From positions 2,367 through 66,366 of the forward strand of contig JAISYZ010000027.1 in assembly GCA_031269545.1 (NCBI GenBank): a stretch of DNA of 64,000 nucleotides. The letters are read 5' to 3'. This stretch comes from Prevotellaceae bacterium (GTDB lineage Bacteria > Bacteroidota > Bacteroidia > Bacteroidales > UBA932). The translations under genes were made by a program, and so were the position numbers. The notes beneath the pieces were generated by a model, which had not been told where the DNA came from, ran no database searches, and saw only the letters and a list, made by a program, of their open reading frames with translations. Shown here piece by piece: positions 5,005 to 55,958 of this stretch; within the stretch, counting starts at the first letter, position 1, and each line of letters opens with the position of its first letter.

Positions 5005-6555
5005 ATGTCGATATTAAAACAAAAAATTGAAGAATTAAAAAATCGCAAAGCAAAAATAATGCTTGGCGGAGGCGAGAAATCTATCGCCAAACAAAAGGAA
5101 ATGGGGAAAAAAACAGCACGCGAGCGTATAGATGCATTGCTTGACAAGGATTCGTTCCTTGAATATGACATGTTTATACAGCACGAAGCTCGCGAATTTG
5201 GCTTGCTTGGCAAAGAATTGCCTGCCGATGGCGTTGTTACAGGAACAGGAAAAATCAACGGCAAACAGGTTGCCGTTTTTGCTCAGGATTTTACTGTTGC
5301 CGGAGGCTCGCTCGGCTTTATGCATGCAAAAAAGATTACTAAAATAATGGATATAGCGCTCAACAACCGTATTCCGCTTATTGGCATTAACGATTCGGGC
5401 GGAGCGCGTATTCAGGAAGGCGTTGGCGCTTTGGCTGGATATGGAGAAATTTTTTACCGCAACACTATTTCGAGCGGAGTGATTCCTCAACTTTCGGTAA
5501 TTCTCGGACCTTGCGCCGGAGGAGCGGTTTATTCGCCTGCGCTTACCGATTTTGTGTTTGTTGTTGAAGGAATTTCAAAAATGTTTATTACAGGACCAGA
5601 TGTAATCAAAACGGTTTTGGGTGAAGAAATTTCGCAGGAAGATTTAGGCGGAGCGCGAGTACACAGCGAAATTACAGGAAATGCTCACTTTTGCGCATCG
5701 AGCGAAGAAGAGTGTTTCAACCAGATACGCACACTTTTGGATTATATTCCGCAGAACAACAATAAAGAATCGCTATTCAACGCATTGGCAAAAGAACCTT
5801 TGGACGAGATAAAAATTGAAACAGCAGTTCCCGACGATCCCAAAATTCCTTACGATGTACGGAATGTTATAAAATCAGTTACGGATGGAAGCGATTTTTT
5901 TGAAGTACAGGCATTATTTGCGCCCAACATTGTAATCGGTTACGGACGAATAAACGGTGCGACAGTCGGATTTATTGCCAATCAGCCCGATTCGCTTGCA
6001 GGCGTTCTCGATTGCGATTCGGCAGACAAGGCGGCTCGTTTTATACGTTTTTGCGATTCGTTCAACATTCCGCTTGTTACATTCGAAGATCTTCCGGGCT
6101 ACCTTCCGGGAGTTGATCAGGAACACATGGGCGTCATTCGTCATGGAGCAAAAATTTTGTACGCATACAGCGAGGCAACCGTTCCGCGCATTACTGTAAT
6201 TTTGCGCAAAGCCTACGGCGGCGGTTACATTGCAATGAACTCGCGCCATTTACAGGCAGATTTTGTTTTTGCATGGACTCTCGCCGAAATTGCAGTTATG
6301 GGAGCCGAAGGCGCTGCAAATGTTATTTTCCGCAAAGATATTGCCGAAGCCGAAAATCCTGCGGAAGCGCGTACTCAAAAAATTCAGGAGTATAAAGACA
6401 AATTTGCAAATCCATACGTAGCAGCAGGCAAAGGATTTGTTGATGCTGTGATAGAACCGTGCGAAACGCGAAAATATCTGATACATGCTTTGAGCGTTTG
6501 CAAAAACAAAAAAGTGGAACGTCCCTATAAAAAACATGGAAATCCGCCGTTTTAA
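5005..6555 (+). CDS. Acyl-CoA carboxyltransferase (methylmalonyl-CoA decarboxylase alpha / propionyl-CoA carboxylase beta family)
   Basis: 516-aa ORF with full-length resemblance to the carboxyltransferase family (NDSGGARIQEG, GPCAGGAVYSPALTDF, AYGGGY). Confidence 0.9.
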   Translation: MSILKQKIEELKNRKAKIMLGGGEKSIAKQKEMGKKTARERIDALLDKDSFLEYDMFIQHEAREFGLLGKELPADGVVTGTGKINGKQVAVFAQDFTVAGGSLGFMHAKKITKIMDIALNNRIPLIGINDSGGARIQEGVGALAGYGEIFYRNTISSGVIPQLSVILGPCAGGAVYSPALTDFVFVVEGISKMFITGPDVIKTVLGEEISQEDLGGARVHSEITGNAHFCASSEEECFNQIRTLLDYIPQNNNKESLFNALAKEPLDEIKIETAVPDDPKIPYDVRNVIKSVTDGSDFFEVQALFAPNIVIGYGRINGATVGFIANQPDSLAGVLDCDSADKAARFIRFCDSFNIPLVTFEDLPGYLPGVDQEHMGVIRHGAKILYAYSEATVPRITVILRKAYGGGYIAMNSRHLQADFVFAWTLAEIAVMGAEGAANVIFRKDIAEAENPAEARTQKIQEYKDKFANPYVAAGKGFVDAVIEPCETRKYLIHALSVCKNKKVERPYKKHGNPPF

Positions 6556-10223: not shown

Positions 10224-10958
10224 ATGAAATTAAAATTATTATCAATTGCAATTATTGCTGTAACTGTTTGCGCATGCAACAGCGGTAAGAAAACCGAACA
10301 GCAAAGTCAAGAGACAGAAACAAAAATTACTAACGAAGAAGTACAATCTGTAACAGAAACAACGGCAGATACTGCTCAAAAAGAAGAACAAACAATGAAA
10401 GAAGAAGTAAAAAAAGAAGAACCACAAACGGCAGTAAAAGCCAAAACGTCAAACGAAGATGTTTTCGACATTGTAACATCACTTGGCACAATACGCGTTA
10501 AACTTTACAAAGAAACGCCGAAACATCGCGACAATTTTGTAAAACTTGCTACATCGGGATACTACGATGGAGTGCTTTTTCATCGCGTAATCAAAGATTT
10601 TATGATTCAAACAGGCGATCCAGATTCTAAAAATGCACAACCCGGAGCGCGTTTGGGCATGGGAGGTCCAGATTATACAATTGATGCGGAATTTCTTCCT
10701 CAATTCAAACACAAAAAAGGCGCAGTTGCTGCTGCTCGTCAAGGCGACCAAGTCAATCCCGAAAAAAAATCATCGGGGTCGCAGTTTTACATTGTTCACA
10801 ATCAAGATGGAACGTCATTTTTAGACGGTGCATATACAGTTTTCGGCGAAACTGTAAAAGGGCTTGATGTTATTGATAAAATCGCAAACGTACAAACAGG
10901 ACAGGGCGACAGACCTGTTGTTGATATTAAAATTGAAAAAATTGTACGTGTAGAGTAG
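10224..10958 (+). CDS. Cyclophilin-type peptidyl-prolyl cis-trans isomerase, lipoprotein
   Basis: Lipoprotein signal MKLKLLSIAIIAVTVCAC, low-complexity E/K linker, then cyclophilin core (FHRVIKDFMIQTGDP, GSQFYIV). Confidence 0.9.
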   Translation: MKLKLLSIAIIAVTVCACNSGKKTEQQSQETETKITNEEVQSVTETTADTAQKEEQTMKEEVKKEEPQTAVKAKTSNEDVFDIVTSLGTIRVKLYKETPKHRDNFVKLATSGYYDGVLFHRVIKDFMIQTGDPDSKNAQPGARLGMGGPDYTIDAEFLPQFKHKKGAVAAARQGDQVNPEKKSSGSQFYIVHNQDGTSFLDGAYTVFGETVKGLDVIDKIANVQTGQGDRPVVDIKIEKIVRVE

Positions 10959-31984: not shown

Positions 31985-32113
31985 TTTTTGATGTCCCGCG
32001 AGGGACTTTAGCATTCTCCAACTTAACAGGTTTCCGAAACCTGTTAGGTTGAAAACTTCTTGCAAAATGCTTGTTTTAATTTTTATGTCTGAAAATTTTC
32101 CTTTTTGAGGACT
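31985..32113 (+). repeat. Partial (right-hand) copy of the MITE-like element seen at 43004-43269
   Basis: ATGTCCCGCGAGGGAC and TTAATTTTTATGTCTGAAAATTTTCCTTTTTGAGGACTGA align to 43176-43269. Confidence 0.5.
32020..32050 (-). terminator. Palindromic AACNTNACAGGTTT hairpin, likely terminator of the 32177-32731 gene
   Basis: 14-bp arms with one G-T wobble and a 4-nt loop; 127 nt 3' of the minus-strand stop. Confidence 0.45.
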
Positions 32114-39857: not shown

Positions 39858-40052
39858 TCAGTCCTTAAAAGGAATATAAATTATTTATTAATAGATAATT
39901 ATGAATATAGATGAAAATATTCTTTCAAAATCATTAAATCAAACATTTACAGTTCAGCAATAAATAAAACCTGACAGGTTTCTGAAACCTGTCAGGTTGA
40001 AATAGTCTGTTTATTAATTTTTTATCTGGAAATTTTGCTTTTTAATAAGCAA
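39858..40052 (+). repeat. MITE-like element copy; its right end overlaps the 3' end of pssA
   Basis: Left end CAGTCCTTAAAAGGAATATAAATTATTTATTAA...TCATTAAATCAAACATTTACAGTTCAG aligns to 43004-43160; the right end aligns to 43215-43265 and contains the pssA stop. Confidence 0.5.
39968..39998. terminator. Perfect 14-bp-arm palindrome (AACCTGACAGGTTT ctg AAACCTGTCAGGTT) between convergent genes
   Basis: Perfect inverted repeat read directly; it lies between the DUF4097-like gene end and the pssA end. Confidence 0.5.
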
Positions 40053-43269: not shown

Positions 43270-43545
43270 TATTTATTTTATTTGTATTAGCGATCTTCGC
43301 TCTTTGAAAAGACGTTTTTTCTTCGTTTTTTAATTGTAAATTGTTTCTGTTTGTTCTCTGTGTAATAAAAGGTTATGCAGAGTCTCCACCGAGGCACACA
43401 GAGTTTTTTATCATTAATCATTATCTCTTAATTGTTAATTCAGTCAGCGAGCCCGTATCTAACTGTTGTTTATTTGTGATTAATACTCAATTCCCAAAAT
43501 ATCCACAACTTATTCACAATTACTGTTTCGTAATTAATTTTTCTG

Positions 43546-43553
43546 TAGTTTTG
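43546..43553 (+). promoter_or_regulatory. Candidate -7 promoter box (TAGTTTTG) for riboswitch leader 1
   Basis: TAnnTTTG immediately upstream of the first conserved riboswitch nucleotides. Confidence 0.5.
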
Positions 43554-43557
43554 CGCT

Positions 43558-43740
43558 GAATTTTGGTGATGCCTATTCCGTTTGCGAAAGGCATTGAAAA
43601 GGGAATCAGGTGCAAATCCTGAACAGACCCGCTGCTGTAAACTCCGTTAAAATCTTTGAGCAATACGCAAACCACTGTGCTGAAAGGCGCGGGAAGGACG
43701 CTGCAAAGATGGAGCAAGTCAGAAGACCTGCCAAAATGTA
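43558..43740 (+). promoter_or_regulatory. Cobalamin (B12) riboswitch aptamer, copy 1
   Basis: Conserved core AAAAGGGAATCAGGTGCAAATCCTGAACAGACCCGCTGCTGTAA, ACCACTG...GGGAAGG and B12 box AGTCAGAAGACCTGCC; P1-like TTTTGG...CCAAAA. Confidence 0.9.
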
Positions 43741-43950
43741 CGAGTTTAGAGTTTTCGAGGAATAGGGCTTGAGACAAACAGCAGACTAATGATTTATAAT
43801 CTACATGTTTGCAAGTTTATCCCAAACATTATTTTAAGAAGTAATTTTCAGGTTTTGTAATATGAAACTTATGAAATTATTTTCTATTTCCATGCGAAAG
43901 CCGTTTAGGAAGACAAATTAAAAGACATTTTATATTAAAATAAAAAGTAT

Positions 43951-44532
43951 ATGGAAATAAAAAAATTAAATTTGAGATTTGGCGTCATTGCAGCAATTAT
44001 TCTGGTTGCGGCAATGAGCAGATTATTACCGCATTTGCCTAATTTTGCTCCTGTCGGAGGAATGGCATTGTTCGGTGCGGCTTATTACAGCAAACGGCGC
44101 TGGGCATTTATTGTGCCTGTTGCAGCGATGTGGATAAGCGACATAATTCTGAATAACATTGTTTACAGTCAATATTTTGACGGTTTTGTGTGGTTTTACG
44201 GCGGTTCGATATTCACATACGGCGCTTTTGCGCTTATAACTCTTTTGGGAATCTTTGTGTTGAAAAAAATAAGCATTTTCAATTTAACATGTTCGGTTTT
44301 AGCGGCTTCGGTGATATTTTTTCTTATATCAAATTTCGGAGCATGGCTGTCGATGGCTGACACATATCCTCGTACTTTCAGCGGATTACAGGCATGTTAC
44401 TTTGCAGGAATACCATTTTTCCGAAACACACTGTTAGGCGATATTTTTTATACCTCTGTTTTATTTGGAACTTTTGAAATACTTCAATATCGCTTTCCCA
44501 TTCTCAGATTACAGGAAAATATTAGTGAATAA
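43951..44532 (+). CDS. DUF6580-like integral membrane protein (putative corrinoid-related transporter component)
   Basis: 193 aa, about 5-6 TM; RLLPHLPNFAPVGGMALFGAAY and GIPFFRNTLLGD resemble the DUF6580 family as I recall it; first gene after the riboswitch. Confidence 0.6.
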   Translation: MEIKKLNLRFGVIAAIILVAAMSRLLPHLPNFAPVGGMALFGAAYYSKRRWAFIVPVAAMWISDIILNNIVYSQYFDGFVWFYGGSIFTYGAFALITLLGIFVLKKISIFNLTCSVLAASVIFFLISNFGAWLSMADTYPRTFSGLQACYFAGIPFFRNTLLGDIFYTSVLFGTFEILQYRFPILRLQENISE

Positions 44533-44576
44533 TAAATTATTCAAATAAAACTGAAACTCATACAGCATAATCATTG

Positions 44577-45173
44577 ATGTACAACACAAGTCATATAATA
44601 GTTGAAACAGATTTGAAAGATTATATCCGTCATTATCGCGATTCTGACAGATTTATAGTTTATTGCAAACAATGCAACAGATACAATGTCTGTTGGGCTT
44701 GTCCTCCATTCGATTTTGATACCGATATTACTCTTTCGCATTACAAAACGGCTTGGATAATCGGCACAAAAATAGACATTGAAGACAAAATTATCGAAAA
44801 TAATAAAGGATGGAAACTGTGTACGCCGCTAACTTATCGAATTATCGAAGAAATACGCCTCACACTGGATAAAAAGCTTTTGGATTTGGAAAAAGAATAT
44901 TCTGACAGCAGAGTTTTTTTTGCAGGCACATGTCATATCTGCTCTTCGGACAACTGCGCCCGAATGCAGGGCAAGCCATGTATCTTTCCCGATAAAATTC
45001 GTCCCTCGCTCGAATCTTTTGGTTTTGATGTAAGTCAAACATCGTTAAGATTATTGGGCGTAGAAATGAAATGGAGTCGAGATGGAATATTACCGCCGTA
45101 TTTTGTTCTTGTCAGCGGCTTTTTCACCAATGCCGATATTAATAAATTGGAGTTTCAACTGTCAATATCATAA
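44577..45173 (+). CDS. DUF2284-like Cys-rich predicted metal-binding protein
   Basis: Cys clusters CKQCNRYNVCWACPP and CHICSSDNCARMQGKPC; ATG at 44577. Confidence 0.6.
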   Translation: MYNTSHIIVETDLKDYIRHYRDSDRFIVYCKQCNRYNVCWACPPFDFDTDITLSHYKTAWIIGTKIDIEDKIIENNKGWKLCTPLTYRIIEEIRLTLDKKLLDLEKEYSDSRVFFAGTCHICSSDNCARMQGKPCIFPDKIRPSLESFGFDVSQTSLRLLGVEMKWSRDGILPPYFVLVSGFFTNADINKLEFQLSIS

Positions 45174-45192
45174 AATAAATAAAGGAATCATT

Positions 45193-47280
45193 ATGGATAT
45201 ATTTATCACTAAAAGAGACGGCAAGCAGGAAGCCTTCTCAGTCGAAAAAATCAGGAATGCCATTGCAAAAGCATTTCTGTCTGTTGGCGGTTTTGCCACA
45301 CAGGATGTTATTACAAATATTTTAAGTCGAATAAGCATCACCGATGGCAGTACGGTCGAAGATATTCAGAATCAGGTGGAAATTGCTCTGATGTCCGAAC
45401 GTTATTACGCTGTTGCCAAGTCGTACATGCTTTACAGGCAAAAACATCTTGAAGACCGCGAAGTGCGCGACAAACTCAAGTTCTTAATGGATTATTGCGA
45501 TGCTTCCAATGCGGCATCAGGCAGCAAGTACGATGCCAACGCAAATGTAGAAAACAAAAACATGGCAACGCTTATCGGCGAACTGCCCAAATCCAACTTC
45601 ATCCGCCTAAATCGCCGAATGCTTACCGACAGATTGAAAGAAATGTATGGTAAAGAAGTTGCCGACAAATATATAGAATTGCTGAACAAACATTATATCT
45701 ACAAAAACGACGAAACAAGTCTTGCCAACTATTGTGCCAGCATTACCATGTATCCGTGGCTGATTGGCGGTACAACTTCAATTGGTGGCAATTCAAAAGC
45801 GCCAACAAATCTGAAATCGTTTTGCGGCGGATTTATAAATATGGTTTTTATGGTTTCAAGCATGTTGAGCGGCGCATGTGCTACACCCGAATTTCTGATG
45901 TATATGAATTATTTTGTCGGGCTGGAATATGGACAGGATTATTATCTGAACGCAAACAAAGTGGTTGATTTGTCGAAAAAGCAACGCACTCTCGACAAAG
46001 TTATTACCGATTGTTTCGAGCAAATAGTTTATTCCATAAATCAACCCACAGGAGCGCGGAACTTTCAGGCTGTATTCTGGAATATATCTTATTATGATAA
46101 ATATTATTTCGAAAGTTTGTTTGACGATTTTGTATTTCCCAATGGCAGCAAGCCCGATTGGGCATCGTTAAACTGGTTACAGAAACGTTTTATGAAGTGG
46201 TTCAATCAGGAACGTACACGCTCAGTGCTTACTTTTCCTGTTGAAACAATGGCGTTGCTTACCGAAAACGGAGATGCAAAAGACAGGGAATATGGCGATT
46301 TTACAGCAGAGATGTATGCCGAAGGACATTCGTTTTTTACCTACATGAGCGACAATGCCGATTCGTTGAGCAGTTGCTGTCGACTGCGCAACGAGATTCA
46401 GGACAACGGTTTCAGTTACACGCTTGGAGCAGGCGGCGTGTCCACAGGTTCAAAAAGCGTGCTGACAATCAATCTGAACCGTTGTATTCAGCAAGCGGCA
46501 CGCGAAGGCGTTCATTATATGTTTTTTCTCGAAGAAGTCATCGCTCTGGTGCATAAGGTGCAGTTGGCTTACAACGAAAACTTGAAATACATGTGCAAAA
46601 AAGGCATGTTGCCTCTGTTCACGGCGGGATATATCAACATGAGCCGACAATATCTCACAGTCGGCATAAACGGACTTGTAGAAGCAGCCGAATTTTTGGG
46701 CATTGAAATTACCGACAACCCGAAATACGCCGCATTTGTGCAACAGGTACTCGGTCTTGTCGAAACATACAACAAACGCTATCGTACGAAAGACATAATG
46801 TTTAACTGCGAAATGATTCCCGCCGAAAACGTAGGAGTGAAACATGCCAAATGGGACAGACGAGATAATTATCAGGTAAATCGCGACTGTTACAACAGTT
46901 ATTTTTATATTGTCGAAGACAGCAGGCTAAACATTGTTGACAAATTTCGCCTGCATGGACGCAAATATATTGAACGCCTTACGGGTGGTTCTGCCTTGCA
47001 TCTCAATCTTGAAGAACATTTAAGCAAAGAACAGTATCGTCATTTGCTTCGCATAGCAACACAGGAAGGCTGCAATTATTTTACATTTAATATTCCTAAC
47101 ACGGTTTGCAACAACTGCGGACATATCGACAAGCGAAATTTGAAAATCTGTCCCAAATGCCAAAGCAAAAACCTTGATTATCTGACGCGCGTCATCGGAT
47201 ATATGAAACGTGTAAGCAATTTCTCACAAAGCCGGCAGGAAGAGGCTGCGAGGAGATGTTATTTAATGGTAAATGATTAA
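45193..47280 (+). CDS. nrdD: Anaerobic ribonucleoside-triphosphate reductase (class III)
   Basis: N-terminal ATP-cone (ITKRDGKQEAFSVEKIRNAI), C-terminal zinc ribbon CNNCGH...CPKCQS and glycyl-radical motif RVIGY; ATG at 45193 (the ORF track start lies inside the previous gene). Confidence 0.93.
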   Translation: MDIFITKRDGKQEAFSVEKIRNAIAKAFLSVGGFATQDVITNILSRISITDGSTVEDIQNQVEIALMSERYYAVAKSYMLYRQKHLEDREVRDKLKFLMDYCDASNAASGSKYDANANVENKNMATLIGELPKSNFIRLNRRMLTDRLKEMYGKEVADKYIELLNKHYIYKNDETSLANYCASITMYPWLIGGTTSIGGNSKAPTNLKSFCGGFINMVFMVSSMLSGACATPEFLMYMNYFVGLEYGQDYYLNANKVVDLSKKQRTLDKVITDCFEQIVYSINQPTGARNFQAVFWNISYYDKYYFESLFDDFVFPNGSKPDWASLNWLQKRFMKWFNQERTRSVLTFPVETMALLTENGDAKDREYGDFTAEMYAEGHSFFTYMSDNADSLSSCCRLRNEIQDNGFSYTLGAGGVSTGSKSVLTINLNRCIQQAAREGVHYMFFLEEVIALVHKVQLAYNENLKYMCKKGMLPLFTAGYINMSRQYLTVGINGLVEAAEFLGIEITDNPKYAAFVQQVLGLVETYNKRYRTKDIMFNCEMIPAENVGVKHAKWDRRDNYQVNRDCYNSYFYIVEDSRLNIVDKFRLHGRKYIERLTGGSALHLNLEEHLSKEQYRHLLRIATQEGCNYFTFNIPNTVCNNCGHIDKRNLKICPKCQSKNLDYLTRVIGYMKRVSNFSQSRQEEAARRCYLMVND

Positions 47281-47288
47281 TGGTTAAT
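47261..47288. repeat. Left arm of the 28-bp inverted repeat bracketing the four-helix-bundle ORF
   Basis: ATTTAATGGTAAATGATTAATGGTTAAT matches the reverse complement of 47642-47669 at 23 of 28 positions (outer 7 and inner 12 perfect). Confidence 0.75.
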
Positions 47289-47306
47289 AAAATAAAAATA
47301 GTGGTT

Positions 47307-47660
47307 ATGAAGCAGAACATATTGAAAGAAAAGAGTTTTATGTTTGCCGTGAGGATTGTGAATTTGTACAGGCATTTGTGCAATGAGAAGAAAGAGTTTG
47401 TTTTGTCCAAACAAGCGTTGCGAAGCGGTACATCGGCAGGTGCGATGGTGCGCGAAGCGGAACATTCGGAAAGCAAAGCCGATTTGATACACAAAATGGC
47501 TATTGCCCAAAAAGAAACGCGCGAAATCATTTATTGGCAGTATCTAATGTGCGAAACAGAATACTTGTCCCGCAAAGAGTTTGAAAGCATTAACAGCGAT
47601 GCAAAAATACTCACAAGCAGCATCAAAACTGCCAAATCCACATTAACCATTAACAACTAA
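47307..47660 (+). CDS. Four-helix-bundle protein (23S rRNA intervening-sequence protein family)
   Basis: About 117 aa starting MKQNILKEKSFMFAVRIVNLYRHL; SKQALRSGTSAGAMVREAEHSESKADLIHKMAIAQKETRE is characteristic of the family. Confidence 0.8.
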   Translation: MKQNILKEKSFMFAVRIVNLYRHLCNEKKEFVLSKQALRSGTSAGAMVREAEHSESKADLIHKMAIAQKETREIIYWQYLMCETEYLSRKEFESINSDAKILTSSIKTAKSTLTINN

Positions 47661-47669
47661 CTATTAAAT
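47642..47669. repeat. Right arm of the 28-bp inverted repeat bracketing the four-helix-bundle ORF
   Basis: ATTAACCATTAACAACTAACTATTAAAT; overlaps the first two bases of the nrdG start codon. Confidence 0.75.
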
Positions 47670-48153
47670 GTTACGGTACATCAGTTTTGATATTGTTTTT
47701 CAGGAAATTCCCGGCGAAATAACGCTGGCTATAAATATTTCAAACTGTCCCAATCGCTGCAAGAGTTGCCACAGTCCTCACCTTAGAGAAAATACAGGCG
47801 AAACATTAGACGAAAACGCCATTGCCGCATTGCTCGATAAATACGGAAAGGCAATTACCTGCATCTGCTTCATGGGCGGCGATGCCGAACCGCGCAAAGT
47901 GGAACGGCTGGCTGCCTTTGTACGAACAGCCGCAGGCAGAAAAATCAAAACAGGATGGTATTCGGGCAGAGCCGCTTTACCTGACGACGTTTCTCTGTTG
48001 AGTTTCGATTATATCAAACTCGGCGAATATATCGAACATTTGGGCGGATTAAATGCACATACCACAAACCAGCGTTTTTACAGCATCGAAAATGGAACTA
48101 TGACCGACATAACGGACATGTTCTGGAACAAAGTTTATAATAAAAAGAAGTGA
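47668..48153 (+). CDS. nrdG: Anaerobic ribonucleoside-triphosphate reductase activating protein (radical SAM)
   Basis: 161 aa; CPNRCKSCHSP cluster motif, NrdG-like length and sequence. Confidence 0.9.
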   Translation: MLRYISFDIVFQEIPGEITLAINISNCPNRCKSCHSPHLRENTGETLDENAIAALLDKYGKAITCICFMGGDAEPRKVERLAAFVRTAAGRKIKTGWYSGRAALPDDVSLLSFDYIKLGEYIEHLGGLNAHTTNQRFYSIENGTMTDITDMFWNKVYNKKK

Positions 48154-48275
48154 AAAGTAATATTAAAAAACCGTATGAATATCAAATCATATACAACAAA
48201 CTTGCGTTTTGACGCTTTATTCCCGATAACTGTTTTTCGCAAGTGGATAAGATTTCGCACAATAATAATTTTATT

Positions 48276-48283
48276 TACCTTTG
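48276..48283 (+). promoter_or_regulatory. Candidate -7 promoter box (TACCTTTG)
   Basis: TAnnTTTG match 36 nt upstream of the ATG at 48319. Confidence 0.45.
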
Positions 48284-48318
48284 CCAATTATACTTTATCT
48301 TTTTATTAATTCTGTTAT

Positions 48319-49470
48319 ATGAAATTCATTGAACGTTTCCAGAAATTGAAATCATTGTTTTCCTACGAAGAAGAAGTAAGTTTGGATGATATTTCACTGG
48401 AAATACGACCGTACCTGTTTAATCAGGAATTTGTTAATGCGGAAATTCAACAAATTCAGCAGACAATTTCTTTGCCTGAATTTTGTTCCATTTCGGACGA
48501 CAGTATCGAAGAAAACAAAACATTTATATATTCCGTTTTCGTGCCGAAAGGCATTGTCAAAACCGATAAAGCCATTTTGTTGCTGCACGGTTTGAACGAG
48601 CGCAGTTGGGAAAAATACCTTCCGTGGGCAGAATATCTGACGCTTAAAACAGGAAGAGCGGTTATTCTTTTTCCTATTGCTTTTCACATGAACCGCACAC
48701 CCAAAAGCTGGTGCAATCCGAGAGTTATCCTGCCTTACGTACACAGCCGAAAAGAAAAGTTTGCAGATTTGGACAATTCTACTTTTGTCAATCTGGCGTT
48801 GAGCAGCCGTTTGTCTGAAAATCCCATTCGTTTCTATCTTTCAGGCAAAGAATCTCTTTTCAATCTATGGCAGCTAATCAAAGAAATAAAAAACGGACAG
48901 CATTCTTTGTTCAAAGCAAACACATCGGTTAACATATTTGCATATTCTATCGGTGCTTTTTTGGCTCAGATTCTGTTATTGTCCAATCCCGAACAACTGA
49001 CATCCGACAGTCGTTTGTTCATGTTCTGCGGCGGCACTCTGTTCAGCCGAATGGACGGCAATGCTCGCGATATAATGGACAGAGAATCATTTCAAACACT
49101 GAGATATTATTTTATGAACGACTTTATTCATAAAGGAATTAATTTTTTGAAAAGGAAAGAAGATTTTATGGAAAAAGCGTTTCAATCCATGCTTTCGTTC
49201 GATAAATATCGCCGTTATCGGGAAGAATTCTTTCAAAAAGCCAAAAATCGTATTGCAGCAATAACACTGAAAAAAGACACAGTCATTCCCACGCTTGGCG
49301 TAAAAGAGGCTTTAGGTAAAACATGCGCCGACGAAATCTTGGAAGAGTTGGATTTTCCTTACGAGTACTCTCATCAAACCCCGTTTCCCGTTCACGGACG
49401 CGTAGATTCTGAAATCGTTCAGCGATGTTTTTCAATGCTGTTCGACAGAGCTGCCGCTTTTCTGCTTTAA
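48319..49470 (+). CDS. Alpha/beta-hydrolase-fold protein of unknown function
   Basis: 383 aa; LLLHGLNERSWEKY oxyanion-region pattern and nucleophile-elbow-like AYSIGAF. Confidence 0.55.
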   Translation: MKFIERFQKLKSLFSYEEEVSLDDISLEIRPYLFNQEFVNAEIQQIQQTISLPEFCSISDDSIEENKTFIYSVFVPKGIVKTDKAILLLHGLNERSWEKYLPWAEYLTLKTGRAVILFPIAFHMNRTPKSWCNPRVILPYVHSRKEKFADLDNSTFVNLALSSRLSENPIRFYLSGKESLFNLWQLIKEIKNGQHSLFKANTSVNIFAYSIGAFLAQILLLSNPEQLTSDSRLFMFCGGTLFSRMDGNARDIMDRESFQTLRYYFMNDFIHKGINFLKRKEDFMEKAFQSMLSFDKYRRYREEFFQKAKNRIAAITLKKDTVIPTLGVKEALGKTCADEILEELDFPYEYSHQTPFPVHGRVDSEIVQRCFSMLFDRAAAFLL

Positions 49471-49601
49471 TATGATTTTACCTGTTTGTTGATTTGCTTA
49501 TTTGTACCTTGTTACGTCTAAAAAAAGTTGACAGTTTAATACTAAAAACAACTATTTAATCATTTTCAATCAATAATTGTAGTTGTATATTAAATTTTTA
49601 T

Positions 49602-49609
49602 TACCTTTG
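49602..49609 (+). promoter_or_regulatory. Candidate -7 promoter box (TACCTTTG) for riboswitch leader 2
   Basis: TAnnTTTG immediately upstream of the second riboswitch copy. Confidence 0.5.
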
Positions 49610-49613
49610 TTCG

Positions 49614-49795
49614 AAATTTTGGTGATGCTTTTTCCATTCGCGAAAGGCATTGAAAAGGGAATCAGGTGCAAATCCTGAACAGACCCGCTGCTGTAAGCTC
49701 CGTTAAAATCTTTGAGCAATACGCAAACCACTGTGCCGAAAGGCACGGGAAGGACGCTGCAAAGATGGAACAAGTCAGAAGACCTGCCAAAATGT
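49614..49795 (+). promoter_or_regulatory. Cobalamin (B12) riboswitch aptamer, copy 2
   Basis: Same conserved cores and B12 box as copy 1; about 11 substitutions over about 225 aligned nt by hand, two of which turn G-U pairs into Watson-Crick pairs in a GAAA-capped stem. Confidence 0.9.
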
Positions 49796-50002
49796 ATGAG
49801 TTTAGAGCTTTCGAGGAATAGAGCTTGAGACAAACAGAGCAGATGAATGATTTATTATTGACGTTTTTTGCAAGTTTATCCCAAACATTATTTTAGAAAG
49901 TAATTTTCAGGTTTTGTTGTTCATGCAGCCTGTAAAATTATTTTTCTATTTCCATGCGAAAGCTGTTTATAAAGATTTATTAACTTTATAATAGTTTTAT
50001 AT

Positions 50003-50734
50003 ATGACACAATTTTTACACAAAATCAAGGCGCATCTGTACGACAATGCGCTTACCGACAACCCTAACGACTTCATAGCGCGGGTTAATTCGGAACGCTC
50101 GCTGAGCGTAAAAGACATTTGCGAATCGGCTGCCGCACGAGGCGGAGCCGACATTTCGGCAGATGCTATGGAACATGCAGTCAACCTGTGGCTGAAAGAG
50201 ATGGGCTACCGCCTTTGCGATGGATTTTCGATAAACACAGGCTGGTTTATGGCAAGTACGCACATTAAGGGAGTGTTCAACAGTCCCGACGAAATCTTTA
50301 ATCCCGAAAAACATACTGTTCTTTTCGAGTTTCAGCAAGGCTCGCAATTACGTAAGGAATTGCAGTCGGTACAGATTGAGATAATGGGCGTAGCCGATTC
50401 ATCGCTTGGCATTGCTCAGGTAACGGATATTAAAACAGGCTGTGTAAATGACATCATCACGCCAAATCGCAACCTGCGCATAAGCGGACACAAGTTGAAA
50501 ATTGCTGGCGACAACGTGGCAAACGGCGTGTATTTCGTAAATCAGGATACGCAGGAACGCACGAAGGTTGATGCATCAGACCTTGTCATCAACAACCCTT
50601 CCGAACTCATGATTGTGATTCCCGCACTGGCGGCTGGTATGTATAAAGTAGAGGTAACAACGCAGTTTACAAACAGCGTATTGCTGAAAGAGCCTCGAAC
50701 TGCCGTTTTTGACAGAATTTTAACGGTACAGTAA
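50003..50734 (+). CDS. HU-like DNA-binding domain / DUF4469-like (Ig-fold) protein
   Basis: 243 aa; N terminus (KAHLYDNALTDNPNDFIARV...SLSVKDICESAAARGG) resembles HU-HIG domains and the C-terminal half resembles the DUF4469 Ig-like domain of Bacteroidales, from memory. Confidence 0.6.
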   Translation: MTQFLHKIKAHLYDNALTDNPNDFIARVNSERSLSVKDICESAAARGGADISADAMEHAVNLWLKEMGYRLCDGFSINTGWFMASTHIKGVFNSPDEIFNPEKHTVLFEFQQGSQLRKELQSVQIEIMGVADSSLGIAQVTDIKTGCVNDIITPNRNLRISGHKLKIAGDNVANGVYFVNQDTQERTKVDASDLVINNPSELMIVIPALAAGMYKVEVTTQFTNSVLLKEPRTAVFDRILTVQ

Positions 50735-50748
50735 TTTTTTAGCGACTG

Positions 50749-50814
50749 ACGCTAATGAGCGTTAGCCTATGCAACTAATGTATGTTAGTGCGTAACGCTA
50801 ACGTACATTAGCGT
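50749..50814 (+). repeat. Extended imperfect hairpin built from TTAGCG/CGCTAA half-sites
   Basis: ACGCTAATG (50749-57) pairs with CATTAGCGT (50806-14), CGTTAGC (50760-66) with GCTAACG (50797-803), ACTAA with TTAGT; followed by the palindrome GTATCGATAC. Confidence 0.7.
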
Positions 50815-50922
50815 GTATCGATACGGATAACCCAACTAACAGATTTTAAAAACCTGTCAGGTTTACAAACGAATAGACAAACAATAAATATAATAAATAA
50901 ACTAATTTTAATAAACAAAGAA

Positions 50923-52734
50923 ATGAAAAGAAATATCAAATTCTTAAGAAACGCGGCAATCGCATTATTAATGATGAACGCTGTCGCTTTTATGTCGTGC
51001 AGCAAAGACGATGAACATATTGCCGTTACAGGTATCAGCATTGAACCAGCTACACTCACCCTTGTTGTAGGTGGAACGCATACTCTCACGGCAACACTGT
51101 TGCCCGACAATGCTGCCAATAAAACCCTAACATGGACAAGCAGCGCCACAGGCTTTGCAACGGTTGACGCTTCCACAGGCAAAGTAACAGCCATTGCCGA
51201 AGGCGCCGCAACAATTACTGCAACCACTGCCAACGGCAAGTCGTCAATCTGCATTGTTACGGTAATAGAGTCCGAAGTTCCCGTTACGGGTATTACGGTA
51301 ATGCCTGCAACTCTGGATCTTCTTGCGGGCGACACTTATACTCTCGCGGCAACCGTAGTTCCCGATGATGCTGATAACAAAAATATAAGATGGAGCAGCA
51401 ATAATACCGATGCTGTAACAGTTGACGAAAACACAGGCGAAGTAACAGCCGTTGCCAAAGGCGTGGCAACCATTACGGCGGCTGCGGGAGGCAAATCGGC
51501 AACCTGTATCGTTACGGTAACAATGCCCGAAGTGCCTGCTGAAAGCGTTGCGGTTGTCCCCGACAATTTAACACTTAATGTTGGCGCAAAGGAAACATTA
51601 ACGGCAACAGTCGCACCCGACAATGTTACCGACAAAACAGTAACATGGACAAGCAATGCCACCGACTTTGTAACGGTCAATGCCGCCACAGGCGAAGTAA
51701 CAGCCGTTGCTGAAGGTGCATCTGTCATTACGGCTACCACCGTCAACGGCAAAACCGCTACATGCAACGTTACCGTAAGCGACATCAAAGATGTGTATGT
51801 GGCAGGATACGAAAACAACGGCAGCCATACTTACGCCAAACTGTGGAAAAACGGAGTCGCTCAATCGCTTGAAGGAACAGCAGGAACAAATACTACTTAT
51901 GCAAAATCCGTTTTTGTTTTGGGCAGCGATGTGTATGTGTCAGGAAGCGAAACCAACGGATCGGTTTATACCCCAAGATTGTGGAAAAACGGCGCATTGC
52001 AGTCTCTTGCGAGCGGATCGTACAATGCGGAAGCCAATGCCGTTTACGTATCGGGCAGCGATGTGTATGCGGCAGGATATGAAAGCAACGGAACAAAAGC
52101 TGTTGCCAAAGTGTGGAAAAACGGCGTATCAGAAGCGCTTACCGATGGTACAAACGATGCCTATGCATATTCTATTTCTGTATCTAACAGCGGCGATGTA
52201 TATGTAGCAGGATATGAAAGCAACGGCAGTCGCAGTGTTGCCAAAGTATGGAAAAACGGCACAGCAACCCCGCTTACAGACGGTACACAATATGCCTATG
52301 CACGCTCGGTTTACGTATCGGGCGATGATGTTTATGTTGCAGGCGAAGAACGCAAATCAAGTCCTACCGCCTATAAAGCCAAAGTATGGAAAAACGGCAC
52401 ACTGCTGTACGAACTCACAGACGGATCAAGAAATGCATATACATATTCGGTTTATGTGTCAAATAATGGCGATGTATATGCGGCAGGCTGGGAGAATAAC
52501 GGTTCGCGCATGGTTGCCAAAGTATGGAAAAATGGCAGCCCGTTATACAGCCTTACTGACGGCGTAAACAATGGTTATGCATATTCTGTTTATGTATCGG
52601 GCAGCGATGTATATACGGCAGGATACGAAAATAACGGAACTAACATGGTTGCCAAAGTGTGGAAAAACGAAGATGTGGAATCAATCAGCAGCGGCAGTAC
52701 AGATTCAAGACCTGCATCCATATTTGTGAAGTAA
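50923..52734 (+). CDS. Surface lipoprotein: three BIG2 (bacterial Ig-like group 2) domains plus seven WKNG repeats (propeller-like)
   Basis: Lipoprotein signal MKRNIKFLRNAAIALLMMNAVAFMSCS; three units of about 80 aa (TLTATxxPDNA...VTWTSS...VDxxTGxVTAxxxG); then seven units of about 44 aa (DVYVAGYExNGS..VAKVWKNG...LTDG..AYAxSVYVSG). Confidence 0.8.
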   Translation: MKRNIKFLRNAAIALLMMNAVAFMSCSKDDEHIAVTGISIEPATLTLVVGGTHTLTATLLPDNAANKTLTWTSSATGFATVDASTGKVTAIAEGAATITATTANGKSSICIVTVIESEVPVTGITVMPATLDLLAGDTYTLAATVVPDDADNKNIRWSSNNTDAVTVDENTGEVTAVAKGVATITAAAGGKSATCIVTVTMPEVPAESVAVVPDNLTLNVGAKETLTATVAPDNVTDKTVTWTSNATDFVTVNAATGEVTAVAEGASVITATTVNGKTATCNVTVSDIKDVYVAGYENNGSHTYAKLWKNGVAQSLEGTAGTNTTYAKSVFVLGSDVYVSGSETNGSVYTPRLWKNGALQSLASGSYNAEANAVYVSGSDVYAAGYESNGTKAVAKVWKNGVSEALTDGTNDAYAYSISVSNSGDVYVAGYESNGSRSVAKVWKNGTATPLTDGTQYAYARSVYVSGDDVYVAGEERKSSPTAYKAKVWKNGTLLYELTDGSRNAYTYSVYVSNNGDVYAAGWENNGSRMVAKVWKNGSPLYSLTDGVNNGYAYSVYVSGSDVYTAGYENNGTNMVAKVWKNEDVESISSGSTDSRPASIFVK

Positions 52735-52965
52735 GCAACAAAGCGAAAAACGAAATTAATGATTAATCTATTAAGAATTAAGAGATAAACAGATAATGAT
52801 TAATGAACAATTAATAATGAATAACGAAGAGCGAAAGGCTCGGAGGCGATTATGTTTCTACCAACGTTGCGTTCCTATGGAACGGAGAACAACAACCTGA
52901 CAGGTTTACAAACGAATAGACAAACAATGAATATAGTAAATAAGATAATTTTAATAAACAAAGAA

Positions 52966-54801
52966 ATGAAAAGAAATATCAAATTCTTAAGAAACGCGGC
53001 AATCGCATTATTAATGATGAACGCTGCCGCTTTTATGTCGTGCAGCGAAAATGAAGAAATAGTTGCAGTTACCGACATCAGTGTCGAACCCTCTACGCTC
53101 ACCCTTCTTGTAGGAGAAACGCACACTCTTACAGTAAAAACCTTTCCCGAAAATGCTAACGGCAAAGTCGCCATATCGTGGGCAAGTAACGATACAAACG
53201 TAGCAACAGTTAATGCTATCACAGGCGAAGTAACGGCTGTTGATGCAGGCGTGGCAATCATTGTAGGAGGCTTGGCTGGCACAGGCAAAACAGTATCGTG
53301 CATCGTTACGGTAGAAGTACCTGCCGAAAACGTAACGGTTGAACCGGCAACGCATGAACTCCTTGTCGGAGCAAAATACACGCTTACGGCAACAGTGCTT
53401 CCCGACAATGCTACCTATAAAACCGTAACATGGACAAGCAGCGCCGCCGACATCGCAACTGTCGATGCAGCCACAGGCGAAGTAACGGCAGTTGGCGTAG
53501 GCGAAGCAACAATTACAGCATCATCGGGAGGAAAAACAGGAACTTGCAGCCTCACCGTGAAACCCATACCTGTTGAAAGCATTACAATAGAGAGTGAAGA
53601 CTTCGAACTTGAAGCAGGCTCAACACGGACGCTCACGGCAACAGTGCTTCCCGACAATGCTACCTATAAAACCGTAACATGGACAAGCAGCGCAACCAAC
53701 ATCGCAACTGTCGATGCAGCCACAGGCGAAGTAACAGGTATTGCCACAGGCGTAGCGGTAATCACTGCTACAGCAGGCGACAAGTCTGCTACCCGCAACG
53801 TTACCGTAGTACCGCAAAACGATATATTTTTGACGGTTAAACCCGCAGGCAGCGGCTTGGTTAGGATTTATACTTTAGCGCAGCATCTTGTTGTTAACTG
53901 GGGAGATGGATCAAGCAATGAAGAATATAACAGTTGCACCGAAATATCTCACACTTATGCCGATGTCAGTTCGACTTACAGTGTAAAGATTATGCTGACG
54001 CAGGGATTAACAACATTTGGCGATGTGCTGTACAATAATAATATGACTAGCGACTATGTCAGTCCACGTATGACTGGCGAGATACATTTTGCATCTTTCA
54101 ATGACTGTCCCGATTTGAATGTTTTGGCAATAACAAACAACAAGTTAACAGGATTGGAGTTGAAAGAATGTCCTGCGCTCTTATATTTGAACTGTACAAC
54201 AAATAAAGTAACAACTTTGGATGTGGGCAATGTTACGACATTACAGTATATATTTTTCAACAGCAATACATTAAGCGCTATCAACATGAGCGGTTTATCA
54301 GCATTAAAGACATTGAAATTATACTCTAATTCATTAACATCTTTGAATGTGAACGACTGTACATCGTTAAAATATTTGGATTGCGGTTATAACAAAATAA
54401 CTTCGTTGACTTTGAACAGCGCCTGCAAAACTACATTAACAGATTTGGATTGCAGTTATAATGAATTGACAAGTCTCGATGTGTCGGGTTTCACCGCACT
54501 GGCTTATTTTACCTGCAGAAATAACAAACTGAAAACATTGGATATAAGGGACTGTACAGGCTTGGCCGGAACAACATACTGTCTTTACAATCAATTGGAA
54601 ACAGTTCATGTACTCGGTGCAATATTCGAGAAGTTAAGGCTGATAGACAATCAATTAACTGCTACCGAACTCAACAGGATATTTACCGATTTACATGACA
54701 GAACAGGAATGGGAGCAGGAGTACTTTGGATTGGCAGCAATCCCGGAACAAACGACTGCGATAGATCCATAGCAACAAGCAAAAACTATGTTTTCTGGTA
54801 A
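52966..54801 (+). CDS. Surface lipoprotein: three BIG2 domains plus C-terminal leucine-rich repeats (BspA-like)
   Basis: ATG at 52966 gives a signal peptide differing at one residue from the preceding gene; LRR units such as LTSLNVNDCTSLKYLDCGYNKITSLTL; the upstream extension in the ORF track runs through repeat DNA. Confidence 0.8.
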   Translation: MKRNIKFLRNAAIALLMMNAAAFMSCSENEEIVAVTDISVEPSTLTLLVGETHTLTVKTFPENANGKVAISWASNDTNVATVNAITGEVTAVDAGVAIIVGGLAGTGKTVSCIVTVEVPAENVTVEPATHELLVGAKYTLTATVLPDNATYKTVTWTSSAADIATVDAATGEVTAVGVGEATITASSGGKTGTCSLTVKPIPVESITIESEDFELEAGSTRTLTATVLPDNATYKTVTWTSSATNIATVDAATGEVTGIATGVAVITATAGDKSATRNVTVVPQNDIFLTVKPAGSGLVRIYTLAQHLVVNWGDGSSNEEYNSCTEISHTYADVSSTYSVKIMLTQGLTTFGDVLYNNNMTSDYVSPRMTGEIHFASFNDCPDLNVLAITNNKLTGLELKECPALLYLNCTTNKVTTLDVGNVTTLQYIFFNSNTLSAINMSGLSALKTLKLYSNSLTSLNVNDCTSLKYLDCGYNKITSLTLNSACKTTLTDLDCSYNELTSLDVSGFTALAYFTCRNNKLKTLDIRDCTGLAGTTYCLYNQLETVHVLGAIFEKLRLIDNQLTATELNRIFTDLHDRTGMGAGVLWIGSNPGTNDCDRSIATSKNYVFW

Positions 54802-54959
54802 TAAGAATTTAACAGAAGAACAGCACATATACCATAGCAGCAAAGAATGGAAATGTTTTCAGATAAACAAACAGGGAATCTGGGGTTTAATCATAATAAC
54901 TAAGGCTTTATAATAATTGCTGTAAAATAATTTCTATTTTTGCAAATCCGAATGGTTGG

Positions 54960-54992
54960 GCAGGGGCGCAAATAATTACGCCTCTGCTTTTT
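54960..54992 (+). terminator. Rho-independent terminator
   Basis: GCAGGGGCG / CGCCTCTGC 9-bp stem (one wobble), 10-nt loop, followed by TTTTT. Confidence 0.6.
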
Positions 54993-55154
54993 GTTGTAAG
55001 CGAAGAATTTTAAAAAGAACGTCATGTTGAATGTTAATTTATAAAGATAATAAAGGTTAAAAATTATTGTTAAAATGGGTTATTTTTTAAAATAATTAGT
55101 TACTTTTGATTTATTGTTGTACTTTGCTGCCCTAATTTTTAATATTTATGAATA

Positions 55155-55958
55155 ATGGTAACACAATTTCAAAAGTTTCTTGAGAAGAATGAACTATCAG
55201 ACAACACAGTTATATCTTATGTATGGACAGTCAACAATTATTTTCTTTTTTATGGAATCATTAACAAAAGTAATCTTTTAGCCTACAAAAGCTGGCTGAT
55301 TGAAAATTTTAAACCTGGAACAGTAAATTTGCGTTTGCAGGCATTAAATAAATTTCTTGAATTTACCAGCAAACACAGCCTGAAAATGAGATTTGTCAAG
55401 GTGCATCACAAAAGTTATCTCGAAAATGTAATTAGCGATGCCGACTACAGATTTTTTAAAACCCAACTCAGAAAAGAAGGGCTTATGGATTGGTATTTTA
55501 TCGTTTGGTTTTTGACATCCACAGGAGCGCGAATCAGTGAACTTTTGCAAATAAAAGTCGAACACGTGAAAGACGGACATTTGGATATTTATACTAAAAG
55601 CGGTACAATCAGGCGATTGCATATTCCAAAAATTCTGCGCGAGAATGCTATGCATTGGTTGAAACACGAAAGAAAATCGCACGGTTATATTTTTCAAAAT
55701 TGCAATGGCGAACGATTGACGGGAAGAACAATTGCACGATATTTGAAATTGTATGCAAAACGATACGGATTAAATACAAAAGTTATTTATCCTCATTCAT
55801 TTCGTCATCGATTTGCAAAAAATTTTCTGGATAAATTCAACGACATCGCATTGTTAGCCGATTTAATGGGACACAAAAGCATCGAAACAACAAGAATTTA
55901 CCTGCGGCGAACTGCAAGCGAACAGCAAACAATAGTAGATACGGTTATAACATGGTGA
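55155..55958 (+). CDS. Small tyrosine-type site-specific recombinase/integrase
   Basis: 267 aa; SAM-like N domain; catalytic pattern TGARISEL (R), HSFRHRFA (H-x-x-R), GHKSIETTRIYL (H...Y). Confidence 0.85.
   Translation: MVTQFQKFLEKNELSDNTVISYVWTVNNYFLFYGIINKSNLLAYKSWLIENFKPGTVNLRLQALNKFLEFTSKHSLKMRFVKVHHKSYLENVISDADYRFFKTQLRKEGLMDWYFIVWFLTSTGARISELLQIKVEHVKDGHLDIYTKSGTIRRLHIPKILRENAMHWLKHERKSHGYIFQNCNGERLTGRTIARYLKLYAKRYGLNTKVIYPHSFRHRFAKNFLDKFNDIALLADLMGHKSIETTRIYLRRTASEQQTIVDTVITW

Follow-up and report, generated by a model that had tools for sequence, protein, structure and literature searches.

Cobalamin riboswitches are guides to vitamin B12 biology, and nearly all of their targets have proved to be genes for corrinoid-binding proteins, transporters, biosynthetic enzymes or B12-independent isozymes. 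In Bacteroidetes, RF00174 riboswitches precede nrdDG, metE and btu operons, close to the promoter and within a long leader; their placement ahead of genes for the B12-independent anaerobic ribonucleotide reductase is a textbook case. Here we describe a 64,000-nucleotide (nt) stretch of a Prevotellaceae genome (GenBank assembly GCA_031269545.1, contig JAISYZ010000027.1, positions 2,367 to 66,366 of the forward strand; hereafter, the window) that carries two such leaders. Copy 1 heads an nrdDG operon. Copy 2, 6 kb further on, resembles the described cases in family, promoter-proximal position and leader length, but it is followed by no B12 transporter, biosynthesis gene or B12-independent isozyme; its neighbors are a gene of the HU-HIG family and two genes for lipoproteins with immunoglobulin (Ig)-like Big_2 domains, BIG2a and BIG2b. 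In our view the best explanation, with a probability of roughly 0.68, is that 49602-50002 is a working cobalamin riboswitch heading an inherited HU-HIG/Big_2 module, which would be OFF with corrinoid and would change the cell surface under B12 limitation, and that the two leaders have been gene-converted.

Described systems share parts of this arrangement. The surface lipoproteins BtuG, BtuH, BtuJ, BtuK and BtuL of Bacteroides thetaiotaomicron are riboswitch-controlled and induced under B12 limitation. The Big_2 lipoproteins resemble them neither in sequence nor in specific fold and are not encoded beside btuB or btuFCD, and the copy 2 module is headed by a cytoplasmic HU-HIG gene, for which btu operons have no counterpart. 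The Ig-fused subclade of the HU-HIG clade (PDB 4FMR, BVU_2165) has the same two-domain architecture as this gene product and occurs in multi-copy, lineage-specific expansions across Bacteroidota. Burroughs et al. (2017) described its massive expansion in Bacteroidetes and occasional transfer to spirochaetes, and predicted a role in mobile-element conflicts, with no riboswitch or B12 link (PMC5499826). Unlike the clade in general, one paralog per genome has here gained a B12 leader and a lipoprotein partner.

A closer parallel comes from Treponema denticola, where an HU-Ig gene (TDE_2259, PF14848 + PF14734) adjoins the gene of a BspA-type leucine-rich repeat (LRR) adhesin active in adherence and coaggregation (TDE_2258, lrrA), as in the copy 2 module, and the two are co-regulated (log2 -5.18 and -5.69, respectively, in a trtA regulator mutant; PMC12724145). 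That pair differs in belonging to another phylum, in having no reported riboswitch and in being controlled by the XRE-type regulator TrtA and oxygen. We also take LrrA to lack the Big_2 stalk arrangement seen here. Our literature search returned no paper linking RF00174 to HU-HIG, Big_2 or LRR genes.

Two Cobalamin Riboswitch Leaders

The leaders and the first gene under copy 2 are as follows.

43546-43950, + strand: riboswitch copy 1, comprising promoter box TAGTTTTG, aptamer 43547-43749 and platform (RF00174, 109.1 bits)
49602-49609, + strand: -7 promoter box TACCTTTG of copy 2, an exact TAnnTTTG match
49603-49805, + strand: cobalamin aptamer of copy 2, in an HU-type leader (RF00174, 108.7 bits)
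49806-50002, + strand: expression platform of copy 2, conserved as far as the HU start codon
49897-49945, + strand: long conserved platform hairpin, followed by a U-rich tract (folding free energy, dG, -16.4 kcal/mol; z -4.1)
50003-50734, + strand: HU-HIG gene of the Ig-fused subclade (HU-DNA_bdg + DUF4469; PF14848, PF14734)

A preliminary description, made from the sequence without database searches, had recognized two cobalamin riboswitch leaders and proposed the RF00174 search that we report. Both aptamers are full-length on the + strand and score far above the gathering score of 31.5 bits (109.1 bits for copy 1; 108.7 for copy 2, over model positions 1-189), and copy 2 reaches 228 bits against a clade covariance model, R1, that we built from nine aptamers. 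Exact matches to TAnnTTTG, the consensus of the Bacteroidetes-type -7 promoter box, lie directly 5' of both aptamers (TAGTTTTG at 43546, TACCTTTG at 49602), and an equivalent box (TACTTTTG, TATCTTTG or TACCTTTG) occupies this position in related loci (L007, L008, L013, L087 and L088).

The leaders, approximately 400 nt each, form a direct repeat. Its best-conserved block (43533-43781 vs. 49589-49837) is 92% identical and further blocks extend it to 43921 and 49983, giving about 380 nt at about 88% identity as a whole, far beyond chance; the aptamers are 93% identical and the platforms 75-81%. The repeat was thus correctly described at first, although not its start immediately after the promoter box, as weak similarity begins about 14 nt upstream of it. 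The stated distance of some 30 nt from the end of the repeat to each start codon fits copy 1 (30 nt), while that of copy 2 is 20 nt. Between the aptamers we count about 15 differences in 203 positions, where about 11 had been given. Two of the differences do convert G-U pairs to Watson-Crick pairs in a GAAA-capped stem, which reads GUGCUGAAAGGCGC with two G-U pairs in one copy and GUGCCGAAAGGCAC with U-A and C-G in their place in the other.

Selection on RNA structure, also suggested in that description, is borne out by covariation. Over the nine aptamers, 11 pairs of the Rfam structure have changed on both sides, compared to 4.9 in shuffled alignments (none of 500 reached 11) and 2-3 in slid controls, and 81% of cells in the consensus helices are paired. 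Because these two-sided changes exceed the controls and the leader recurs across loci (see below), the comparison indicates that the HU-linked riboswitch is inherited and under structural selection.

Recurrence in Related Genomes

Loci were collected from homologs of the HU protein and their contigs, together with 80 HU loci taken from one genome per species, and scanned with Rfam, nhmmer and the nine-aptamer covariance model. Whether DUF4469 or BIG2 genes recur downstream of RF00174 elsewhere had been raised as a question, and they do: the leader is linked to HU-HIG in nine loci including the window, all from related Prevotellaceae, one of them (L088) with an HU remnant only. The loci other than the window are listed here; the genome names among them may point to a termite-gut dataset.

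L001/L007, Iy174_bin36: RF00174 at 99.6 bits
L004, metagenome contig: RF00174 at 51.3 bits, the aptamer being cut by the contig end
L008, Ct408_bin144: RF00174 at 99.5 bits
L013, Kf353_bin101: RF00174 at 80.1 bits
L087: RF00174 at 107.6 bits
L088, Pcl387_bin97: RF00174 at 106.8 bits, with the HU gene decayed to about 42 codons
L090: platform only, as the contig begins within the platform
L092: RF00174 at 104.8 bits

The nine loci fall in at least five genomic neighborhoods (after nrd; by the glutaminyl-tRNA synthetase gene; by the leucyl-tRNA synthetase [LeuRS] gene; after DUF5036/LpoB-like; and one other). No aptamer was detected at about 75 other HU-DUF4469 loci in the covariance-model scan (809 kb). 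Riboswitch-linked HU proteins have in common an MTQxLHKI N-terminus, which is present in 5 of the 120 closest family members. For P0003, the sole member not yet tested, the MTQ N-terminus predicted a leader, and a leader was then found. The leader motif TTTGCARGTTTATCCCN{4,6}TTATTTT, which L004 matches, had no matches in a metagenome contig collection that evidently lacks these metagenomes, and neither the window HU protein nor P0001 could be found on record by exact look-up.

The Big_2 Lipoproteins

50923-52734, + strand: BIG2a, with lipobox followed by CSKDDE, three Big_2 domains (E=6e-46) and a 7-bladed propeller with "VWKNG" repeats
52966-54801, + strand: BIG2b, with lipobox followed by CSENEE, three Big_2 domains (E=2e-41) and leucine-rich repeats

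An HU-like gene followed by two Ig-domain lipoproteins, none of them a recognized B12 enzyme or transporter, had been read from the translations, and the domain assignments agree (PF14848 + PF14734, Big_2 + propeller, and Big_2 + LRR). All three genes lie outside the classic B12 classes of transport, biosynthesis and B12-independent isozymes. BIG2b matches LRR_8, LRR_4 and internalin J and is BspA/internalin-like, with the BspA/LrrA-like combination of LRR and Big_2 domains on a protein with a lipoprotein signal. Its true start is at 52966 and not at the longest open reading frame start, 52852, because the upstream region and N-terminus are duplicated between the two genes (50848-51114 vs. 52891-53157, 86% identical). 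The signal peptides of BIG2a and BIG2b are near-identical, with acidic residues after the lipid-anchor cysteine, an arrangement that resembles the Bacteroidetes surface-export signal.

Orthologs in the related loci were sought with tblastn. Downstream of HU, L004 carries a full-length BIG2a ortholog (76% identical) and L090 a Big_2 lipoprotein gene; BIG2b orthologs are present in L008 (70%), L088 (83%) and L092 (83%); and L001/L007 contain frameshifted BIG2b fragments (L001 7888-9065). L013 has HU alone, adjoining LeuRS, which is also a neighbor in the window. Where there was enough sequence, an intact Big_2 lipoprotein gene is thus found at 6/8 loci, a pseudogene at 1/8 and none at 1/8. We rejected a general role of HU-DUF4469 genes as first genes of surface-protein operons, as the genes behind them are heterogeneous, with Big_2 at 4/45. 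Because Big_2 genes are found at 6/8 riboswitch loci vs. 4/45 family-wide, these gene neighborhoods indicate that the HU and Big_2 partnership is specific to the riboswitch group. The module decays along different lines in different genomes: in L001/L007 it is BIG2b that is frameshifted, with riboswitch and HU kept, and in L088 (8813-9208) the riboswitch and BIG2b are kept while the HU gene has shrunk to the remnant of about 42 codons, behind which stand four tandem repeats of about 23 nt.

The propeller (BIG2a residues 285-603; 51775-52731) was modeled by AF2 with seven four-stranded blades (predicted local distance difference test score, pLDDT, 96; predicted template modeling score 0.93). 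Its homologs in Bacteroidota number more than 3394 and are joined to Big_2, TIG or FN3 domains or to a sorting tail of the type IX secretion system; most of them, including one at L014, have no riboswitch. Pfam does not model the domain, and no closely similar structure has been solved. Foldseek matches in the PDB were generic: the CylK propeller was best (template modeling score about 0.68), followed by Kelch, TolB and lectins.

The preliminary description saw in these genes a possible corrinoid-capture module, in which the Big_2 lipoproteins, above all the three-Ig plus propeller protein, would be new BtuG/BtuH-like surface B12 binders induced on B12 starvation. B12-riboswitch control is what such a module would have, the lipobox followed by acidic CSKDDE or CSENEE is typical of surface-exposed Bacteroidetes lipoproteins, and the C-terminal domain of BIG2a, confidently modeled as a 7-bladed propeller, gives it a lipoprotein trait of BtuG. 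The architecture as a whole parallels BtuH2, in which a C-terminal B12-binding domain follows three Ig-like domains, and BtuG, a 7-bladed propeller (PMC13616437), and new B12-binding lipoprotein folds are still emerging (PMC12751083). However, sequence searches of Pfam, NCBIfam and the PDB gave no match to BtuG, BtuH/DUF4465 or BtuJ: phmmer against the PDB returned no BtuG chain for the propeller lipoprotein at E<=10, neither lipoprotein matched DUF4465, the BtuH domain, in Pfam at E<=0.01, and no BtuG was among the top 50 Foldseek PDB matches, so BtuG-likeness was rejected at the level of both sequence and specific fold. No btuB or btuFCD lies within 14 kb, and no TonB-dependent receptor was found in the window between 38 and 64 kb or in related loci. 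Furthermore, the propeller belongs to a generic, mostly riboswitch-free family, the commoner partner of the leader is the adhesin-like LRR protein, and riboswitch control does not in itself imply binding, as the riboswitch-controlled BtuL and BtuK2 of B. thetaiotaomicron do not bind B12 (PMC12751083). The parallel with BtuH2 and BtuG is therefore real but an analogy only, and corrinoid capture, which finds no specific support here, is speculative and in our judgment unlikely.

Expression Platform and Extent of the Transcript

The post-aptamer leader (platform, approximately 190-200 nt) was found solely together with an aptamer when the collected loci were searched with nhmmer. Platforms of HU-type leaders are 65-91% identical to one another, with compensatory changes in their consensus structure. 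The invariant UUUGCA at 49871-49876 and the L5 loop of the aptamer (UGCAAA) are complementary. A regulatory kissing loop is known from other cobalamin riboswitches, and by analogy this pairing could be a candidate for one. Both leader types, nrd and HU, keep the hairpin at 49897-49945, in which 6-7 pairs show two-sided changes. Together with its U-rich tail it is the strongest candidate for the switching element, as either a terminator or a sequestering structure. We considered, and rejected, an antiterminator in which the 3' strand of P1 would be paired to the 5' side of this hairpin.

Four features downstream of the HU gene bear on how far a transcript from the copy 2 promoter might extend.

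50749-50814, + strand: very stable hairpin just after the HU gene, without a U-tract (dG -34.8 kcal/mol, z -6.2)
50838-50861, + strand: decayed palindromic hairpin upstream of BIG2a (dG only -7, vs. -19 to -23 kcal/mol in intact copies of L004, L092 and window 39968)
52894-52904, + strand: palindromic hairpin remnant (3' arm only) upstream of BIG2b
54960-54996, + strand: first canonical intrinsic terminator, a GC-rich 9-11 bp stem followed by UUUUUGUUG (dG -18.1 kcal/mol)

The initial reading, that no convincing TAnnTTTG box separates the three genes and that they could form one transcript, was partly upheld. Neither 50735-50922 nor 52735-52965 contains an exact box; the nearest match in each, TAATTTTA, has one mismatch and lies 13 nt ahead of the ATG, within a conserved 75-nt upstream region that BIG2a and BIG2b share. 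There is also no canonical terminator between the riboswitch and 54960. The very stable hairpin after the HU gene, the palindromes of L004 and L092 and this shared upstream region with its near-match box speak against a single transcript. Structured, non-homologous sequence occupies the same post-HU position in L004, L008, L090 and L092. The palindromes are copies of a repeated 14-bp perfect hairpin, AACCTAACAGGTTT(loop)AAACCTGTTAGGTT, with dG of -19 to -23 kcal/mol, which is intergenic and sometimes lies between convergent genes. Copies are found in the window (32019-32050 and 39968-39997), in L004 (7 copies) and in L092 (2 copies), and decayed ones in the window at 50838-50861, 52894-52904 and about 12122; the two copies within the module have dG of -7 and -10. 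This hairpin may be a bidirectional terminator of the clade or a repetitive extragenic palindromic (REP)-like element, the terminator role being suggested by the intact copy between convergent genes at window 39968. A sigma-70 promoter and terminator scan was uninformative for Bacteroidetes promoters, and a sub-threshold Rfam search of 50700-55200 returned nothing relevant. On this sequence evidence a single three-gene transcript is possible.

The HU-HIG Protein

The HU-HIG protein has 243 amino acids, no signal peptide and an isoelectric point (pI) of 5.5. It is 100% identical to a protein from a Prevotellaceae metagenome-assembled genome (MAG), and exact protein matches assign the window to such a MAG, with locus tags LBS69_. 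Its domains are, in order, PF14848 (116.9 bits, cut-off 30, E=7e-34) and PF14734 (104.2 bits, cut-off 22.6, E=4e-30), and residues 8-234 match 4FMR (BVU_2165) in phmmer at E=3.5e-22. An AF2 model built from 24 close homologs had a pLDDT of 65; Foldseek of this low-confidence model found only 4FMR (E=3e-20) and generic Ig folds. The protein lacks the small, basic character of canonical HU/IHF proteins, and its HU domain contains 12 lysine and arginine vs. 17 aspartate and glutamate residues. Because of the pI of 5.5, and because the Ig domain fills the DNA cleft in the homologous 4FMR structure (PMC5499826), the "DNA-binding" label that the protein first received is doubtful, and these features suggest that it probably does not bind DNA. 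The family can be highly paralogous, with at least 10 copies in Chryseobacterium taeanense. The literature search returned no paper naming DUF4469. Riboswitch-less HU-DUF4469 paralogs are followed, at about 140 nt, by RF02914 "DUF805b RNA" hairpins (45-50 bits; L003/L010, with L010 sites at 5878-5912 and 10369-10403, and L012 at 1162-1197), and it seems that HU genes of the HU-DUF4469 family are generally followed by a structured element.

These properties bear on a second alternative, in which the HU-HIG protein is the true output of the riboswitch, a nucleic-acid-binding regulator acting in trans, and the lipoprotein genes are independently transcribed neighbors. It would explain why HU-HIG is the most constant partner of the leader, retained without an intact lipoprotein gene in L013 and L001, and it accords with the HU fold and with the hairpins between the HU and Big_2 genes. 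The acidic pI and the residue balance of the HU domain argue against it, as does L088, which keeps the riboswitch and BIG2b and has lost HU, and Big_2 orthologs accompany the leader in 6/8 loci with enough sequence, far above what chance neighbors would give. We consider it improbable, slightly more so than corrinoid capture.

History of the Two Leaders

All nrd-type and HU-type leaders belong to one family. L087 and L088 share the window layout of riboswitch, nrd operon, second riboswitch and then HU or Big_2, which allows the two leader types to be compared within each genome.

L087, nrd-type vs. HU-type: aptamer 85% identical, platform 56%
L088, nrd-type vs. HU-type: aptamer 89% identical, platform 61%
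Window, nrd-type vs. HU-type: aptamer 93% identical, platform 75%

As the two types have diverged in L087 and L088, their duplication must be old. The nrd platform of the window is 63-75% identical to HU-type platforms, vs. 55-60% to the nrd platforms of L087 and L088, and a 3' segment of the HU type is present in it; the window leaders are in direct orientation. The simplest reading of these identities is an old duplication followed by conversion of the window's nrd leader by an HU-type leader. The near-identity of the window leaders would then apparently result from gene conversion, in the direction from HU type to nrd leader, and not from recent duplication. The preliminary description of copy 2 as a second copy of the nrd leader therefore reverses the history for the window, since the nrd platform there is closer to the HU type than to other nrd platforms. 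The pair offers a clean natural example of gene conversion homogenizing two riboswitch leaders in one genome.

That copy 2 is a neutral passenger of a local tandem duplication of the nrd leader, with no selected regulatory role, is very improbable and largely refuted by sequence conservation: it does follow the nrd operon directly in the window, L087 and L088, and is very similar to copy 1 in the window, but in nine loci, several of which are distant from nrd, the aptamer has stayed intact (80-108 bits) and shows compensatory changes, the platform is conserved as far as the HU start codon, and the divergence of the two types in L087 and L088 means that the duplication is old and that both copies have been maintained.

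The nrd Operon and Flanking Features

43951-49470, + strand: copy 1 operon, with profile matches to DUF6580, DUF2284, NrdD, a four-helix-bundle gene, NrdG and DUF6051

NrdD and NrdG match the equivalogs TIGR02827 (943.8 bits) and TIGR02826 (160.5 bits), and as B12-independent isozymes these targets of copy 1 fit the classic B12 regulon. The nrd operon is also under RF00174 in L087 and L088, and that of L089 begins with the 3' end of an aptamer. The longest nrdD reading frame overlaps DUF2284 by 92 nt (45082-45190) and alignment to homologs begins no earlier than residue 36-39, which puts the probable true start near 45190. Between nrdD and nrdG, at 47261-47669, lies a gene for a 126-amino-acid four-helix-bundle protein ("23S rRNA intervening sequence protein"), with 28-nt inverted repeats on either side that are 82% complementary. 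It looks like a small insertion, since L087-L089 lack it and have an nrdD that directly overlaps nrdG. DUF6580 and DUF2284 are constant companions of nrdDG under the cobalamin riboswitch, in two gene orders (window 43951-45173; L087 3550-4755; L088 4938-5516; L089 2809-4069). DUF6580, named "putative transport protein" by NCBI, and DUF2284, predicted to be metal-binding, are candidates for an accessory role in the B12-independent reductase or for transport.

On the other side of the module, BIG2b is followed by a tyrosine recombinase gene (55155-55958) and then LeuRS. An exact TAnnTTTG box at 54935, about 25 nt before the terminator at 54960-54996, means that this terminator serves either BIG2b alone or a very short independent transcript. 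The whole riboswitch-HU-Big_2 module stands between the arms of a 19-nt inverted repeat (16/19; 49478-49496 and 54860-54878). The 10-nt core of the repeat, CCTGTTTGTT, has no further occurrence in the 64 kb, where chance would give 0.21, and chance is a possible explanation. The recombinase gene lies 280 nt beyond the inverted repeat, is not syntenic and has no homolog in any related locus. An invertible promoter or mobile island, which the recombinase and the raised G+C content of the module might suggest, was rejected, as the recombinase has no counterpart in the related loci and the sole bracketing inverted repeat encloses the promoter as well. The G+C content is 45-50% across 50.0-54.2 kb, vs. 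about 37% in the flanks, which could reflect the Ala/Gly/Thr/Val-rich composition of Big_2 domains or a foreign origin.

A Model for B12-Dependent Control and Its Meaning

The model has a demonstrated basis in the intact aptamers, which are conserved and covary, in the linkage that recurs across loci and in the assigned domains and folds. Under the model, plentiful intracellular corrinoid would bind the aptamer, and the platform would shut off HU-HIG expression, with the covarying hairpin and its U-rich tail as the candidate shut-off element; read-through would carry control on to the lipoprotein genes. When B12 is scarce, the module would be expressed along with NrdDG, whose operon lies immediately upstream under the paralogous leader, and the cell surface would probably change as a result, in adhesion or in ligand capture, while B12 is limiting. 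From the evidence above we infer this physiological role, the OFF logic and the joint control of the lipoproteins.

Several observations weigh against this model. The antiterminator pairing beats shuffled sequences only in the two leaders of the window and is not conserved in relatives. The hairpin of -34.8 kcal/mol stands directly after the HU gene, and intact 14-bp palindromic hairpins lie between the HU and Big_2 genes in L004 and L092; if these palindromes are terminators, the lipoprotein genes may have their own promoters. The module is not rigid, with HU alone in L013 and no HU in L088, and monophyly of the riboswitch-linked HU proteins was not seen in a neighbor-joining tree. Finally, we know of no HU-HIG protein of known function.

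B12-dependent control of an adhesin-like surface module is nevertheless the best-supported reading. A known riboswitch class is here wired to an unreported class of targets, and B12 level probably controls a cell-surface function not previously tied to B12. It is tempting to go further, although only tentatively, and view B12 scarcity as a cue, with the riboswitch de-repressing BspA-like adhesins and HU-HIG for attachment to corrinoid producers or host cells, or with the propeller and LRR lipoproteins as a new class of corrinoid-binding folds. If true, a cobalamin riboswitch would govern cell-cell interaction or capture, outside all known classes of the B12 regulon, and the large HU-HIG(Ig) family would gain its first functional handle.

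A riboswitch kept by selection in front of an HU-fold protein and adhesin-like lipoproteins would point either to a new class of corrinoid-handling surface proteins or to B12-dependent adhesion. It would also be the first regulatory clue both for HU-HIG(Ig), a family with thousands of members and tens of copies in some genomes, and for a propeller domain that has more than 3000 members and no Pfam model.

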